The notes under the pieces: model-generated | What the model was told of the DNA's origin: nothing | Seen by the model: only the letters and a program-made list of their open reading frames with translations | The model's database searches: none | Shown here: positions 2,234-33,699 of the stretch, one piece after another | How the letters are laid out: every line of letters starts with the position of its first letter | How positions within the stretch are numbered: position 1 is the stretch's first letter | Translations under genes and position numbers: made by a program | Assembly: GCA_003614675.1 (NCBI GenBank) | Contig: ML002386.1 | Location: 1 to 34,800, forward strand | Origin: Dimargaris cristalligena | Lineage: Eukaryota | Length of the DNA stretch: 34,800 nucleotides | Reading direction: 5' to 3'

Positions 2234-3599
2234 TTATACTGGACTCGTCCGAAAGGGCTGGACTACCCGGAGGAAGTTGCCCAAGGGTTGCGAAGTCTCG
2301 GCTTTCTCGACCGATAATTCAGCGGCAGCGTCAGTTGGAAGGAGTGGTGGATCTGTCTCTTAAATATTATCAGGCACCGGTTTTGATCGAGGTCATGCAA
2401 TTTGAGATGGCAGTAGTGTGGTCCTCGCTTGGCCAGTGTAGCGTTTATGTCAGCTCTATCACTAACTTTGGAGACGTGGCAAATGCTATCGTTCTCGTGT
2501 TTATTTTCGCCCAGCTTACTGGCAGGCGGGGTGTCTGTAGGCTGGTTGGTGGGGGCCTAAATAGATGCCAAAGCAGACTTATTCTCTTTAACTATGCTAT
2601 ACCAAAAAGTAGGCGATAAATGGTAGCAGCCACATAGCGAGGGTAATGTTCATACAGTTTTAATTTGAATGTTAAAAGAATTGTCCTCCATACGATAATA
2701 TAAAAAATTAGAGCGATAAAAACCCGCGAGTAGCATTGGTAAATGCTCACGGATAGTTTTATTGAAATATATACAATAAAAAATAAAGATAATGTCCTAA
2801 GTAGGTAGCGATTGATCATGATACTTCTTCAGGGCGCCCAGATCTGGAAAAAAAAATCCAGCAAACTCAAAAAAAAAAGTCCAGTTGACCACCTTTATCC
2901 AAGCTGACGGGGTAGTCTACTACATAATCCAGCGGAGAATTGAAGGTTAACGACTTGCGGGGACTGAGAAGGTCAACCGATAATGTATCCTTAGAAACAG
3001 CTCTTGACTCACACGGAAACTGGATAAAGTCGCCGTACTCACATTACCCGACTGGGGGCCGACCACCACACCGGTTTTGTCCATTAGTGGGTAGGATTTT
3101 CCGTATCCAAATTTTTCTCTGACATCGCCTTTCGATATTGGGCCATCTTGGCACTAAAAAGAGCCGATTCAGCAGGGTTTCCGTACAACCTGTTAGTATA
3201 GGGGTTATCCCTATTGTCGGGGTAAAGAGGGGAGGCCCCGCCGGACGACTTAACTGGCGGATAGGGGGTATTGGAAAAGATGTCATCGGGATGGGGATGG
3301 GCGTACTGGTTGGAAAGACTAGGTGGTCCATTCTTCATAACGGGTGGGCGCGGGCCAGCGGTGGCTACCTAGTTATTATCGGCGGAATTCCAGGTATCCC
3401 CACCCCACGCGCCATTGACTTCTTCATTGGCACCTGGATAATCATTGTAGTCGGAGACACTCGGCTGTTGATACCCTGCGCCATCGCTAGGGTTGCCGTG
3501 GATGCCGTATTTTTTGGCATCCGGCATGGGACCAAACGAAGTGGCCTGAACCGACACGGCCATCAAAGCCAGGAATGAGAAGGTAATTTGGGTCTTCAT
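2234..3599 (-). pseudogene. Pseudogenised paralog of the secreted protein at 31813-33300
   Basis: Signal peptide MKTQITFSFLALMAVSVQA vs MKTQITIPLLTLATMSVQA. Shared blocks YG.HGNPS, M.NGPP, NSP..YV, APT...TDT.PA.KL.E and TSSG. Nonsense changes TGG>TAG (3369-3371), CAG>TAG (2557-2559) and TGG>TAG (2263-2265), plus frameshifts near 2900-3120. Confidence 0.88.
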
Positions 3600-7334: not shown

Positions 7335-9650
7335 TCAGGGGTGAATTGGAGCAGTCGCTAAGCCGGGAGCAGCAGTCCCAGCAGTGAGAGCAACCGTGGT
7401 CGCCGCCCATCCAGTCGAGCGGGCCACCATGGGATTAGTGGGGGCAGTCGCCGAAGACCGGTAAGGGCCAGTAACCGTACAAAAAAGGGAACTCACACAC
7501 CGGATATAGTCATGAAAGTAGTGGCAGAGGGAAGTAAGGCCGGTAGTAGTGGCGGCCGAAGGTTGGGAGAACCGCTCGGAAGTAGCTGGGTGACAAGCGG
7601 TCAAGAAATTGCTAACCATGGCTGAGGGCAGGGAGCCAGCGGCGGCTGTGGGAACGGCAGTCGTCTGACCACCGCCGATACCTTGGTTGACAGACGCAGA
7701 CTGGTTGGGATAGGGCGAAGCCGTTTGGCGAGCCGCCAGTTCCTTAGCCAACTTATGCTGCTGCATCTGATAACTGACCAGAATCTCAAAGTGAGTTCGG
7801 TTCATCATAGTGAAGGAAAACAAAATGGAGTTCGTCAGGGCTTTGCGGGGAGCCATAGCCGGATCGTTGACATGAATTAACCGGAGGTGGTGGGTGAGGA
7901 GGAAGGACCAGCGGTCGAAAATCAAAGGGTCAATGTAAATGTCGAAGTTGACGAGGTGCAGAAAGGCAATTTCCAAATGATTCACCTCTGAAATTTTCAA
8001 GGTGGAAATCTTGGACCACGCCTTGTTGGAATAAGTCTTGTCCAGGAAGAACTTGGACGCGGCCATCAGCGCAGCCAAATACATACGGCGACCACAGCGA
8101 CTGGGATCCTTTCGGTTAGCGGCTGCGGGGGACTGCTGAGCTGAGGAATCGCATCCACCCATCTCAGGGACACTGCCTCCAGTGGCAGTGGCTCCTCCCG
8201 CGGATGTGGGCGTATCTAGCGGTTTGCCATTAAAAGACGCCTGGGCCGAGAGAACGGGGCTGCTCTGGGCAGAGCCCGTAGTATTCAGCGCGTTCACGGC
8301 CGCGACAGCCAAAGAGGCTTGCTCCGAGTCGGACAGACCCATGGAGGCCGGAGTGGCCGCCGGGGTCGGGAGGGACTCGGCCCCCTGGTGGGTAGACTTG
8401 GGGAGAGCCTCGGCCGGTAGCGGGCGAGAGCGATACGTTTCGGGACTGGCCGGTGGGGTAGACAGGGTGTTCTTCATGGGGATCCCTCCGACTAAAGCGG
8501 GGGGTTGGAACGAGGCAGCAGTAGGGGGAATCGCCTGAGTGGAGATGCCATTTTTCAGCTGCTCCTGTTGTTTCCGCTGGTAGGCCGAGAGGGCACGGTA
8601 CAGGAGAAACAGGGCCAATTTTAGGATCTGCTGAGGCAGACGGGAACGGGTGTGAGTCTCCTTGACAAAGTGACGAAGGCTGCACAGCTGGGTGTGAACC
8701 GAGGTCGAGTGTTTGGGCCAAATGACGTTAATGAGACGACAAGTAGCATCTAAGGAGGAGGCGAATATGTTTGAGGGACAGTGCGGCCAGTAGAAGACAG
8801 AGCGGATGGTATAAAGGTGAGTTGGAAGTCGAATACAGTGTTATCAGATCCCACCCGAGAAATCGGGTCGGGGGATACCCACAGTAGAGTTGCCCTCAGG
8901 CAGGGATCGCGGAGGATCGACGGGTATTTTACCCCAGGTAAAAAAAAAGGGGGACGATGGGTGTGCTCTTTCTTATAAGGGGGTGGTATGTGCCCGGGGG
9001 ACAAGCCACCTGCGGGTACCTCTCTCCTCCCCTTTGATCAAAAGGAGCACCCTTCTCCACAGAATGGTCTAACCGTGATGCCTCCCCCAAGACCACACTC
9101 GCGCGCATACCCTCACCCATACCCACCCACCCCGCATGTTTGCACACCTGGTATTCTAACCAACCGGTATGGGGAGAAGGCAAGGCATAGGTCAGAGGCT
9201 CAGTCTCAGATAGGGAGCACCGGGGCGGGGTAGTCAAGGGGAATAGTAGGGACGAACTAGAAATAAGTGCTTACCATAAACAAGTTCGGTTTCAACGAGA
9301 GCGGGATTGCAAACGCTGGCCTGGGCCAGAATCCGCTGGGCGGGGGCTGGGCGACGAGCGGCCTCACTATCGATCGAGGCAGCGGTGGGGTCCTGCGATT
9401 CAGCTTTCCGCTTGACGGCAGGGATCTGAGCGCACGACGGTTCGCTTCGGTTCAGGGTCGAAGGAAGAGTGGGGGAAGTAGGAGTGGCGACGTTCAAAAA
9501 AGAAGAAGAGCGAACGGCGGAAATACAAAGAGGGTGGGGAACAATATGGGCACGTTGGGTCTCGCCGGATGAACCCACCAGCCCGCCAGAGGGAAGGGTC
9601 TGGGGGTGCAGCCGGCGATTCAAATCAGTACTCGGGCGGATATGGCTCAT
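7335..9650 (-). CDS. Pho85 cyclin, Pcl5/Pas1-like (PHO80-like cyclin family), about 596 aa, 2 exons
   Basis: Exons 9650-9275 and 8749-7335; intron GTAAGC...CCTTAG, phase 1, frame checked. Motifs DATCRLINVIWP, SLRHFVKETHTRSR, LALFLL and CGRRMYLAALMAASKFFLDKTYSNKAWSKIS..EVNHLEIAFLHLVNF match the Pcl5/Pas1 cyclin box. Confidence 0.92.
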
Positions 9651-12318: not shown

Positions 12319-12395
12319 ACTACCATTACTACCACACTGTATAAACTACCATTACTACCACACTATATAAACTACCATTACTATCACGCTATATA
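12319..12395 (+). repeat. 26-bp minisatellite, about 3 copies
   Basis: ACTACCATTACTACCACACTGTATAA / ACTACCATTACTACCACACTATATAA / ACTACCATTACTATCACGCTATATA. Confidence 0.9.
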
Positions 12396-17857: not shown

Positions 17858-20800
17858 TTAGGCAACTCCCGAATCCGACAAGTTGCGGGGCTCGGTCCGG
17901 GACGTTCCCGGTACTTTAGTTTCTGTACAAAAGTTGGGTTCGGCGAACAGGCGATTGAAAGCCGGTAATGGTAAGGTACGGGTCCGAGGGGCTAGTCCCC
18001 TGCCCGTGAAGTTCCGCCCGGAATTGGGCAGCGACGCCGACGCGGAAGGATAGGCTGGGTGGGTCAGACCTACCGCCACCACCTCTTTTGATTCGGTTGG
18101 TCCGAGGGGCGAAAGATACGAGGGCTGATTCCCGACCATTGGGTTGTTATTCCCGGGGCCGTTCGCATAGGAACCGGGAGCGGCCACCGGCGGAGTTGAT
18201 CGGCCACCCCATCCCATTTGCATCAAACTTTGGGCAGCCGTCCACCGCTCGTCTTTGCCCCGGCCGGCCGGAAGATCCGAGAGCGGCTCGTTGCCATTAC
18301 GGTCGGCGGGGGTTTGGCCTGACGGGTGGGGTAAGGTTTGGGATCGGTGAATATGTCCCCCCCGGGTCACTGTACCATGGTAGACGCGACTTGGTTCGGT
18401 CCAATTGGCCCAAGGCGCCAATTTGGGCCATTGGATCCGGAGGCCTGGAATCACATGGGTCGGTCGGGGGGCCTCTTTTAGTGAGGCAGGGAAGGGGGTC
18501 GAGGGCAATGGGCCGGCGACTGGGGGCGGTGGGCCGGTGGTGGTGGTAGTGGACCACGCCGGTCGGCTGGAGATAATTTCCGGGGCAAATGGGTCTACGT
18601 CGTCGGACATACAATGGTGGATCAAGGCTTGGAGGCTGGGCAAGGGTGTGGCTGAACCCAAAGTACCGGAATGGTAGATCCCGCTCGGCGGTACGGCTTG
18701 GTGGTCAGTACTCGAAGGTTCCATAGGATTATATCTCGATGGAATCTGATCAGTGCCAGGCCGATCACTTCCGGGGTGGCCAGGTGGCTGACCTGGCGTC
18801 ATTGCCTGACTAATGACTGATTCACCTATGCCGTCACCTGCATGGTTGGGTGCCATTGGGGATGAACGCCCCCCCACCTCCGTCTTGACCCGGTCAACGC
18901 TAAGCATACCACTACTACCCCCACTACAATTACCGCCGTCCCTACTACCGGTGGTTAACCCCGAACTCCCTTGGTTGCTGTTCGAATTGGGGGCGGACGA
19001 GGGGCTGTCGCCCCATTTGACGTTAATGCCCGAATCCGACGGTGAAATAGTTGACGCGGACAGCGAAGTCGTTGCCGCCCTGGGCGAGACGGGCATATAG
19101 TAGGTAGATGGCCGATGGGACGGCGAATGCAAAAGGCGAATGTCCGCTGTGGTCACTTTGAGTTTGGGCAATTCGGGGCGGGCCGGGGTAGCCGATAACC
19201 CACCAGCTGTACTTGTTGTTGCCTGGTAATGGACTAGCGTACTCCCCACCCCTCTATGAGCAGGGGAGAACGAAGAGCCTTGTTGATGAGTAGGTCGAGG
19301 AAGAAACTGGATAGGGGTAAGGAAGAGGTCCCGCGGTCGGCCGAGGTGTGGTTGAGTGGCGACAGTGGGGGTGGTGTTGGTGTTAGTGTGGGTGTTGGCG
19401 GCGCATCTCAGACCTGTTCGATTTCCCCCCAATCCCTCTCCTCCGTCTTGAAGCAGTTGGTGGGCCCTACTCACTAGGCCCCTGGCATCTCCGCATTCCG
19501 GTGCCGGTAGGGGCACAGGCTCCACGTTCATGGGTGTCATCACTTGACTACCATGGGCGGGACCAGGGGCACTACTCACGGGTAAGCTACGTTGCTGGGT
19601 TTCCAACATCGGTGAGGTGGTGGATTCGTCCCTCTCTAATTTAGGGCGCTTAGAGGAGGGTGGGCACACTGGTGTTCCAGGCATTTCTTGGCCGTTTTTG
19701 GCCTTTTCTATAGGGTGATTCTTACGGCGATGATACCGCCTATTAGACGTAGCAAAGTATATTTAAAGTAGGTTTAGACATCAAGGTTAGAAATGATTTG
19801 ATATGGCTGGATAGTACTTGAGGAGGGAGGCAGGCATCCAACATCGGCTCATTAACCCTAGCTACATGCTGTGCTTTAGTATAGCCTCGGGGCTATAATG
19901 ACCAGGCGCCGTAGTGGGATGGTATATAGTTTAGAAATACTTACTTTCGAGTTCCCAAGTCAGTCCGAACCCTAATCTTCAACCCCTGGTTAGCAAACGC
20001 CTTGGATAATTCCGTGGACTCCGTCATACCCGGGAAGCGTTTCGGCGAATAAACGGTAAACGGGTCCGAAATGATACAATGCCGAAAGTAGACCATCGTG
20101 TCGACCAGCTCGTACAAATGAAACTTAAGGCGATAGACGCCTTCTAAGCGAATGGACAAATCCGGGAAGACAAAGAAAGCCCCCCGTTGGTCGTTAATAT
20201 CCCGTAGGTTATTCACCGATGAAACCAGGGAACCACTCAGAATGGTGTTTTTACCGTTTTTGGTGTGGTAGATTTCCTCGTCGCCTGTTTCAGATAATAC
20301 GCACACGTACATGAAGAAATGGGGATTGACTAAGTCGGTGATGGCGGTGGAACAGGAAGTCGAGTCCGTGGGCTGGATATTGATCAGTTGAATAATCGGC
20401 GGGGGATCAATGGGTCGGCGGTCAACTATAAATTGCAACGTATCATTATGTTACAGTGGTATTAGGTTAGGGACGGGGGGGAGTTTTTTTTTTGGCTGTA
20501 ATTTTTGGGGTTAATTCTGGCCATGGCTTAGCGTATTGTAGAAAGTGTGCCTGTTCCAAATAGCGATGGTGTAGATGTATATTCTATTTACCTCGATCGC
20601 TCACACTGCCCATGCGTGATCGAATAGGTTGTTGTCGCATGACAAGTTGGTAGGGCCTACGGAAATACAGTAAGTATAAACCCTTGGGATTGCCTTATTA
20701 GATTAATTTAAAACTCCGACATGTTAGCAACATCCATGAGTATCAAAATCTGGTCTAGGAAAAATCCCTAATTGAGCCTACCTTGTGGTGTTATCAGAGT

Positions 20801-31555: not shown

Positions 31556-31812
31556 ACCCCCAAGCCCCACTTTTCCAGCCATCATCCGAATCCCCCTCTT
31601 CCTTTCTCCTACGATTCCTTTTCAACTGTCTATCTGTTTGTATCTACACACTCTTTGTATTTTTGGACAAGTATAGTAGTTAACCCCTTTCTAATATTCA
31701 ATTATCTGAACCACCCGTTTGAGTTTTTGGCTACAACAATTATCACTTTTAAATATATTTACACTGGCCACATCTTTTGCAACACCTTTCAAAAAAAATT
31801 GTGATATTTAGT

Positions 31813-33300
31813 ATGAAAACCCAGATTACTATACCTCTTCTGACATTGGCGACCATGTCGGTTCAGGCCGCCCCCATGGATCAGACCGCCCCATGGATCA
31901 GACCGCCGGCTGTGACAATGCCGGTTCCCCAACACTACGGCAATCATGGTAACCCTAGCTCCGGACCTAGACATCAACAACCAAGTGGTCCCGAACACAA
32001 TTACTACAGGAATGCTCTAGGGAATGCATACGATTCTTACTCCACGACTGAACAGTACGGAGACTTCAATGAGTGGGATAAGAGTAACTGGGAGGCCACC
32101 ACCAGCGGCAATGTGAAGGAATCTCGACTGGGAAAGCGTTATAATCCCGTTACTGGTGCCGGTCTCGCACCTAATGATTCCAGAAATCCAGGAATAGCTA
32201 GTGTCTACGGGAACATATATGTATCGACGACTGGCCTACCCCAACTGCCTATGAATAATGGGCCACCTAGATCCTTTGGCCAAAACCCCCATCTACTTCC
32301 TAGCGATATGTACCAGAGTGCCTTTTATCCACCCACCCAGATGCCCAATGAGTCTACTTCCTATCCGAACCATCTGACAAACGACTACTCTAACCTAGAG
32401 TTTGGAACCCCCATTGCCGCGGCTCAGCAAAATGCCAAGTTAAATGAATACAGGCGTAAGAACCCCTTCGGTCTGACGGTTACAACCGGGTTTACTAAGG
32501 ATAAGCGAGTGACCCCCCCAAATGATGACGAAAACCAGGTTGCTCGTAACAATTCATTCTGGATAGAAACCCCTACTCCCCTAAGGGAGAAACCTGGTAC
32601 TGGCGGTTTTCAACCGGGTGAAGTGAATGATGCACCTCCGACCAATACCCGTTTGACCCAGACTAACCGTAAGGGATCATTCTGGATCAACACTCCTAGC
32701 CCCAAAGACCCAGTATTCGCCAATTCTCCGTCCGAATATGTAGACTCTCCAGCCAATTTTAATAATATCGACCAGCTTGGACTGTATTTTAACTCACTGA
32801 AATCTACGCAGAACTCGAGTTCGAAAGCCGGGGTTGTCCTGAAGTCGACTGCGGTAGCGACTCCCGAAGACCCTAAGTCCCTTGATTCGACAGCCAAGGT
32901 AGCCGCTGACTCCGGTTTTTATCAGCCTCAACCAGCTTCGGGGCACAGCCCACCCAAAAAGTGGCAATACACCACTCCGTCTATGCAGGCCCCCACCGGT
33001 GGACGTACAGATACCCTGCCGGCCGGTAAATTGGCCGAGGATGAGGACGAAGATGAGGACATTTTCTATGACGCTAAATCTGTATCTGAAGTTGCCTCAG
33101 ATGCTCTCTCAGTCAAGCAAGAGTCTGCCGCTCCCACTGTTTTGAATACCCCGGCCCAATCTAAACCCTGGTTCTGGCAACGTTTATTTGCCAAGTCTTC
33201 CCCTGCCGATGTGGCCGCTGCACCAGCCCCCGAGCGTACCGAGCCTTCGCAGTTGTCGAATACTTCTTCTGGGTGGTTAAGTCGCTTCAGCCGTGCCTAA
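31813..33300 (+). CDS. Secreted, Cys-free, largely disordered protein (candidate effector), 495 aa
   Basis: Uninterrupted ORF. The ATG at 31813 aligns with the paralog start. Signal peptide ends VQA|A; N/P/S/T-rich; dibasic sites GKR and DKR; internal repeat NSFWIETPTP/GSFWINTPSP; EDEDEDEDIFYDAKS motif. Confidence 0.88.
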   Translation: MKTQITIPLLTLATMSVQAAPMDQTAPWIRPPAVTMPVPQHYGNHGNPSSGPRHQQPSGPEHNYYRNALGNAYDSYSTTEQYGDFNEWDKSNWEATTSGNVKESRLGKRYNPVTGAGLAPNDSRNPGIASVYGNIYVSTTGLPQLPMNNGPPRSFGQNPHLLPSDMYQSAFYPPTQMPNESTSYPNHLTNDYSNLEFGTPIAAAQQNAKLNEYRRKNPFGLTVTTGFTKDKRVTPPNDDENQVARNNSFWIETPTPLREKPGTGGFQPGEVNDAPPTNTRLTQTNRKGSFWINTPSPKDPVFANSPSEYVDSPANFNNIDQLGLYFNSLKSTQNSSSKAGVVLKSTAVATPEDPKSLDSTAKVAADSGFYQPQPASGHSPPKKWQYTTPSMQAPTGGRTDTLPAGKLAEDEDEDEDIFYDAKSVSEVASDALSVKQESAAPTVLNTPAQSKPWFWQRLFAKSSPADVAAAPAPERTEPSQLSNTSSGWLSRFSRA

Positions 33301-33699
33301 TAGGCTGTGCAGATTTGCTAATCATGCAATTCTTCGAAACCACTGTAGTCTTTATATTTGATTGATTGGAGAATATGTATGTACACTATCACTGTGCCAA
33401 CTCACTTTTCCTTTTTGGTATTTGGATATATTGTTTTGCTTTATATTAGCTTAGTTTCTTATTTAGCTGTATTTACTATTGGATAGTCACTGATTCTCCT
33501 TCTACATAGTTATTTTTATCATCATTTTTTCGAACTGGATTCAATTAGTCACAATAAAATCAATTTTTAGTAATCCCATTAATTTGTACAAAGCATTGAC
33601 ATCATGTACATTACTGTTCATTATATTATTCTATTATTCACTATAGTCTAACTGGAAAAAAATTGAGATTGGAGTAGTGGGGTAAACACTGGCGCTTCA

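Follow-up and report, generated by a model that had tools for sequence, protein, structure and literature searches.

A gene of the mycoparasitic fungus Dimargaris cristalligena encodes a protein that joins a signal-peptide-like N-terminus to a strong FFAT-like motif, EDEDEDED-IFYDAKS, in a C-terminal tail that is predicted to be disordered. The gene lies in the 34,800-nucleotide stretch analysed here (positions 1 to 34,800 of contig ML002386.1, assembly GCA_003614675.1), which we refer to as the window and which is fungal nuclear DNA. The reading we lean towards, with less than even confidence, is that the product is a secreted protein of the interface between parasite and host, and that the motif is not a VAP ligand. 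The evidence for the gene, the motif and the route of the protein is set out below, and is then weighed against the readings in which the motif is used by the host, used by the fungus itself, or without function.

An intact gene encodes the motif-bearing protein

The motif is encoded towards the end of a single-exon gene on the forward strand of the window, with the following features.

31813..33300, + strand: motif-bearing coding sequence, a single exon of 495 amino acids plus stop, identical to the public gene model P0006
31813..31872, + strand: signal-peptide-like N-terminus, residues 1-20, with K2, then the hydrophobic core ITIPLLTLATMSV, and V-Q-A occupying positions -3 to -1 ahead of AP
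33037..33060, + strand: acidic tract EDEDEDED, residues 409-416, from the ORF translation
33061..33081, + strand: FFAT-like core I1-F2-Y3-D4-A5-K6-S7, residues 417-423, matrix score 1.0
33163..33189, + strand: aromatic/basic segment KPWFWQRLF, residues 451-459, helical hydrophobic moment 0.32 (for KPWFWQRLFAK)
33265..33297, + strand: C-terminal SSGWLSRFSRA, residues 485-495, moment 0.52, the second highest in P0006

ORF translation gives one uninterrupted reading frame of 495 codons over 31813-33300 (+), closed by TAA TAG after SSGWLSRFSRA. The same translation recovers the elements that the original prediction had read from the DNA, namely EDEDEDED-IFYDAKS at 33037-33081 (residues 409-423), KPWFWQRLF, and the terminal SSGWLSRFSRA. 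The closest in-frame stop upstream of the ATG at 31813 is 21 codons away, and no ATG is found in any frame within the 300 nt upstream of this start; the hydrophobic N-terminus therefore belongs to the protein P0006. In a run from a second study (X5), contigs span 31651-33500 with the exception of base 33097, and over this interval they differ from the window at a single site, A>G at 32190, which is the third base of the Pro126 codon and synonymous. P0006 is thus a real, intact gene, the integrity of which is supported in two data sets.

Several other features of the window were recorded alongside this gene. At 17861-20312 (- strand) there is a velvet-domain ORF (PF11754, E 6e-37) and, after it on that strand, a low-complexity ORF of 608 aa, and the two may be one gene with an intron; a PHO80-type cyclin (PF08613) is encoded at 7338-8477 (- strand). 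Between 10000 and 10900 purines strongly predominate on the + strand (GC skew 0.44, AT skew 0.30), which contains runs of G and of GA; this region lies upstream of minus-strand ORFs and could represent a CT-rich promoter or leader. Intergenic sequence at 12319-12395 holds three copies of a 26-nt tandem repeat.

The C-terminal tail carries a strong FFAT-like match

Motifs were scored with the Phospho-FFAT matrix of Di Mattia et al. (2020, Table EV4; PMC7705450), using the core and N-terminal tract terms only, with matrix position 4 set to D/E = 0, an adaptation made here for conventional FFAT motifs. FFAT scores run upwards from 0, which is ideal, and those below 3 are strong (PMC8306308). On the adapted matrix EDEDEDED-IFYDAKS scores 1.0, within the strong range, and the sole penalty, of 1, comes from the isoleucine at position 1. 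This residue is a natural variant, and a hydrophobic residue at that position is described as causing no loss of targeting (PMC3261905). Position 2 of the core is an F/Y residue, position 4 is acidic and position 5 is small, and all six of the residues scored upstream of the core are D or E; the runner-up site within P0006 scores 4. The motif region also falls in predicted disorder, with an AlphaFold2 pLDDT below 50 and no helix; the ESM Atlas model has a pLDDT of 0.31. Slee and Levine (2019) reportedly give the conventional FFAT matrix together with background rates across the proteome. Judged by its residues, EDEDEDED-IFYDAKS is a true, strong FFAT-like match, and the resemblance first proposed from the letters of the DNA holds under position-weight scoring.

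Two other roles for this part of the protein were considered. By eye, IFYDA does not fit the Atg8-binding core [WFY]xx[LIV], and WQRL fits the pattern but has no acidic context. Sulfation of the acid-flanked tyrosine was set aside; we know of no fungal enzyme for tyrosine sulfation.

To set the score against chance, composition-preserving shuffles of P0006 were scored in the same way: a score of 1.0 or better was obtained in 51 of 20,000 (0.26%), and one of 3.0 or better in 15%. A core with a score of 1 or better has an analytic probability of 7.8e-5 per position; P0006 offers 24 positions with an adequate upstream tract. A six-frame scan of the whole window, covering 37,768 stop-free sequence windows, returned this motif as the only match at 2.0 or better. 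The motif exceeds the chance expectation for one protein and is unlikely to have arisen by chance on that scale. Scaled up to a few million residues, the size of a proteome, the rate would by our extrapolation still give about a dozen chance motifs of such quality, one or two of which would fall in proteins with a signal peptide.

The N-terminus has the features of a cleaved signal peptide

The protein begins with MKTQITIPLLTLATMSVQA, followed by AP, with the predicted cleavage site between the two. By inspection, rather than by a predictor, this segment is made up of n, h and c regions and ends in a V-Q-A site. The signal-peptide features on which the original prediction relied are likewise apparent in the paralogs and the pseudogene described below: the segment is conserved in P0007, P0003, P0004 and the dead copy, and the N-terminus is among the best-conserved blocks of the P0006/P0007 alignment, with the identity islands QITI, LLTLAT and SVQA.

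The Kyte-Doolittle hydropathy of the N-terminus reaches a maximum of 2.13 at residue 5 in a 9-residue window. In a 19-residue window the maximum is only 1.09, with no higher window anywhere in P0006, and the N-terminal stretch is consequently too weak for a membrane span. The hydropathy scan of P0006 found no second hydrophobic segment. The C-terminus has no HDEL and is not hydrophobic, so that there is no GPI-type signal. From these features we infer that P0006 is a soluble secreted protein with a predicted cleaved signal peptide. With the signal peptide cleaved and no span in the chain, the motif is predicted to be lumenal or extracellular in the producing cell. MSP domains face the cytosol (PMC7705450), and cytoplasmic location is one criterion for a FFAT-like motif (PMC8306308). 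A protein with a signal peptide therefore cannot use such a motif in the cell that produces it.

Directly after the predicted cleavage site lies a 17-nt tandem repeat of 2.6 copies (31863..31907, + strand), which is translated through shifting frames as AAPMDQTAPWIRPP and accounts for the five-residue surplus of P0006 over its paralogs.

The protein is predicted to be disordered and has no recognisable membrane anchor

The composition of P0006 includes 11% P, 10% S, 9% T and 8% N (S+T 19%); cysteine is absent, and the chain contains five N-x-S/T sequons along with three dibasic sites. No Pfam family was matched at E up to 1. AlphaFold2, run with the family alignment, gave a model with a mean pLDDT of 34.2, values below 50 in 489 of the 495 residues and no secondary structure. 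The ESM Atlas gave no usable feature match, and the structure rows retrieved from it all have a TM of 0.25 or lower. On these models P0006 is predicted to be wholly disordered along its full length. A search of solved structures with the whole protein returned a single marginal match, to a MazG-related protein (E 0.044), which we disregarded; the same search with the 41-residue motif region returned none at E up to 10.

The disordered body holds a number of internal landmarks. The best-conserved block across P0006, P0002 and P0004 is RRKNPFGLTVTTGFTKDKR (residues 214-232, 32452-32508), which is flanked on both sides by dibasic sites; Kex2-type processing at these sites may release a short peptide or split P0006. 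Twin motifs occur further along, NSFWIETPTP at residues 247-256 (32551-32580) and GSFWINTPSP at residues 288-297 (32674-32703), and the first of the two is retained by P0002 as GSFWLETPTP.

It had also been proposed that the short segments rich in W, F and R at the end of the protein might tether host ER to a membrane. This part of the original prediction is not supported. The helical hydrophobic moments of 0.32 and 0.52 are modest, AlphaFold2 places no helix in either segment, and both gene models of the paralog at the P0007 locus stop at AAPTV, short of the segments. The terminus of another relative, P0005, reads GFVGRRA and resembles SSGWLSRFSRA. With hydropathy of at most 1.09, these two moments and no predicted helix, we find no membrane anchor of the IncV or TgVIP1 type in P0006.

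A small family with one dead copy

A HMMER search of 1.84 billion representatives recovered five proteins with an E value of 0.001 or lower. Among them is a 319-aa call of P0006's own gene; the other four are all named Dimargaris cristalligena and derive from two assemblies. Word-index searches brought up only P0006's own fragment or members already known, and a search restricted to proteins of 30-66 aa found no relatives. On the evidence of these searches the family is small and is seen in one species only, Dimargaris cristalligena.

The intact relatives represent three loci: P0007, P0004 and P0005. Two further entries, P0002 and P0003, are models of the P0007 locus in another assembly. The gene models P0007 and P0002, which describe one locus in two assemblies, are spliced differently; each omits a block that is kept by the other and by P0006, so this paralog is probably mis-modelled in both.

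P0006 and P0007 share 54% identity (182 of 335 columns), and their alignment contains 19 islands in which four or more successive residues are identical, IFYD among them. The P0007 tail reads GEDDTEDNT-IFYDTEP. The acidic tract and IFYD are retained there, but core position 5 is T and position 7 is P, and on the adapted matrix this tail scores 3.0, at the cut-off. The other two loci, P0004 (204 aa) and P0005 (150 aa), are without the tail, which is thus present at one of the three other intact loci. A P0004 site, GYADASA (3.5), and the best P0005 site (4.5) were rejected as counterparts; both lie at non-homologous positions and have scores that are common among the shuffles. The islands RTDTLPAGK and LSVKQ.SAAPTV, which flank IFYD on either side, are longer than IFYD itself. 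Fully identical 4-mers make up 58 of 326 (18%) in the P0006/P0007 alignment overall and 13 of 71 in its C-terminal block, and the conservation of IFYD is no better than this family background. The expectation that intact members would conserve the motif is thus only partly supported: the tract and IFYD recur at a single further locus, where the score is weaker and the identity of the core no more than ordinary.

The dead paralog lies on the same contig, with the following features.

3599 (ATG) to about 2449, - strand: dead paralog, with a MKTQIT...SVQA start as in P0006, in-frame stops and at least two frame changes
2467..2508, - strand: pseudogene counterpart of the motif, ENKHENDSICHVSK, aligned opposite EDEDEDEDIFYDAK

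This copy, 28 kb from the intact gene, still has a recognisable signal-peptide coding part. That it carries an altered motif had been noted from the DNA, and the alignment agrees, with ENKHENDSICHVSK read at 2508-2467 (-). On this comparison the motif is older than the duplication; it persists in both tail-bearing intact copies and is decayed in the dead one. This argues only weakly for selection on the motif itself.

Possible uses of the motif in host or parasite

We propose that P0006 would enter the ER via its cleaved signal peptide, would be glycosylated and perhaps cut at dibasic sites, and would then act outside the parasite cell, at the wall or the haustorial interface, where weak multivalent contacts may form through its short conserved aromatic and proline islands. 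As the evidence stands, we judge the IFYDA motif a little more likely to have arisen as a by-product of a disordered tail that is acidic and dotted with aromatic residues than to work as a VAP ligand. That the protein is secreted, acts outside the cell and makes no use of the motif are all points that we infer. Against an idle motif stand the rarity of a score of 1.0 among the shuffles, with no other six-frame site at 2 or better, and the retention of the tract and F-Y-D core in the only other intact tail-bearing copy, set beside their loss from the dead one. D. cristalligena has haustoria that lie inside host cells (PMC9866270), and TgVIP1 supplies a precedent for a secreted FFAT protein of a eukaryotic parasite (PMC12669045); these too count against it. 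The Dimargaritales parasitise Mucoromycota and some ascomycetes via an appressorium and haustorium (PMC9866270), and D. cristalligena is one of a set of sequenced, uncultured mycoparasites that are characterised as mainly biotrophic (PMC6784888). As every named relative is assigned to a haustorial biotrophic mycoparasite, the delivery into another cell's cytoplasm suggested by the original prediction is a real possibility.

On that alternative, P0006 would leave the haustorium and reach the host cytoplasm or the cytosolic face of the membrane around the haustorium, where EDEDEDED-IFYDAKS would bind the MSP domain of host Scs2/VAP and so recruit or disturb ER contact sites. We regard this as possible but doubtful. 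The N-terminus would render the motif useless inside the producing cell, and the producer is a haustorial biotroph, both of which fit such a role, as does a cysteine-free, species-restricted family in which the signal peptide is conserved and a dead copy lies close by. Families of this description are typical of cytoplasmic effectors. The quality of the motif fits as well, with its score of 1.0, fully acidic tract and predicted disorder, and with a natural isoleucine variant at position 1, where a hydrophobic residue did not lower targeting (PMC3261905), and the P0007 paralog retains the acidic tract and IFYD. There are precedents in TgVIP1 (PMC12669045), IncV and XopM (PMC11631713) and HopN1 (PMC12411717). 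However, unlike IncV and TgVIP1, P0006 has no membrane anchor, and its W/F/R segments show little amphipathic character and do not occur in the paralog. The score of 3.0 in that paralog and a core conservation equal to background also tell against a host-directed role, as do the dozen or so chance motifs of such quality extrapolated for a proteome. Our literature search found no effector translocation shown for mycoparasites of the group to which Dimargaris belongs.

The motif could instead serve the fungus itself, if the N-terminal stretch were an uncleaved anchor, for instance in an outer organelle membrane with the C-terminus cytosolic, or if a downstream start gave a cytosolic isoform; P0006 would then be an ordinary contact-site tether on the fungus's own Scs2/VAP. 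A strong motif in disorder and an only moderately hydrophobic N-terminal stretch suit this idea, and N-anchored cellular FFAT proteins do exist, such as RMD3/PTPIP51 on mitochondria (PMC3261905). Nevertheless, we consider it unlikely. A 19-residue hydropathy of 1.09 is short and weak for a span, and the conserved V-Q-A fits a cleavage site. As K2 is the only positive charge close by on the N-terminal side and the stretch is succeeded by D23, an N-in orientation is favoured, and with it a lumenal C-terminus. There is no upstream ATG and no support for an internal start, and restriction to one species would be odd for a housekeeping tether. It is very improbable that P0006 is a decaying or functionless orphan in an eroding family, with an open frame and a motif that both lack function. 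The dead paralog 28 kb away, the disagreement between assemblies over the gene models of the other paralog, and the lack of homologues outside the species and of a fold would all accord with decay. Yet the 495-codon frame is open where the dead copy gained stops and frameshifts, 19 identity islands of four or more residues persist in an otherwise divergent pair (54% identity), and the second data set is identical but for one synonymous site. The gradings of an idle motif, a host mimic and a ligand of the fungus's own VAP rest on a rough base rate of FFAT mimics in the effector sets of pathogens, the measured chance rate, and a modest gain in likelihood from the paralog. We return to a secreted interface protein with an idle motif as the preferred, if tentative, reading.

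Comparison with known FFAT proteins and effectors

Cellular FFAT proteins (ORP/OSBP, Opi1, CERT, PTPIP51 and others) resemble P0006 in that a disordered segment carries an acidic tract directly ahead of x-[FY]-[FY]-D-[AC]-x-[DEST]. Their motifs are on the cytosolic side and conserved across species, whereas that of P0006 lies behind a signal-peptide-like N-terminus and is seen in one species. Candidate effector families of rusts and powdery mildews, which are haustorial biotrophs, have a signal peptide, no known domain, a one-species distribution and paralogs that include dead ones. Many of these effectors are small and cysteine-rich. P0006 differs from them in its 495 residues, its lack of cysteine, its predicted disorder throughout and its host, which is another fungus.

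A close parallel is TgVIP1 of Toxoplasma gondii, a secreted FFAT protein of a eukaryotic intracellular parasite, which binds host VAPA/VAPB (PMC12669045). As described there, TgVIP1 has a signal sequence (a signal-peptide-like N-terminus in P0006) and a FFAT-like motif and, like P0006, it is taxonomically narrow and lacks any further recognisable domain; it differs in its size of 160 kDa and in being held in the vacuole membrane by a transmembrane domain (PMC12669045), while P0006 has no span and is only a candidate for host delivery and VAP binding. The two proteins have no sequence relationship. IncV of Chlamydia and the type III effectors XopM and HopN1 are pathogen FFAT mimics that reach host VAP (PMC11631713, PMC12411717), and P0006 would be a candidate likeness. 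These are bacterial proteins with type III delivery (PMC11631713, PMC12411717), in contrast to a eukaryotic protein with a predicted Sec route. IncV is moreover described as membrane-inserted with two motifs after serine tracts (PMC11631713), whereas P0006 has one motif after a purely acidic tract. A producer that lives in or penetrates host cells is a feature of such mimics that D. cristalligena shares through its haustorium (PMC9866270).

Our literature searches found no FFAT mimicry for fungi or haustorial parasites, and no effector work on Dimargaris. P0006 might be an effector that mimics FFAT motifs, in which case it would be without precedent both in fungi and in fungus-on-fungus parasitism: an anchor-free disordered protein secreted from the haustorium into a Mucorales host with a tail that seizes Scs2/VAP. 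We hold this to be conceivable rather than probable. FFAT mimicry is an established means of host-ER capture by intracellular bacteria and Toxoplasma. To our knowledge, the manipulation of fungal hosts by early-diverging mycoparasites is almost unstudied. If the motif is idle, it is a warning that strong FFAT scores arise by chance in the acidic disordered tails of secreted proteins; if it is used in the host, the EDEDEDED-IFYDA tail would rewire host ER contact sites at the feeding interface.
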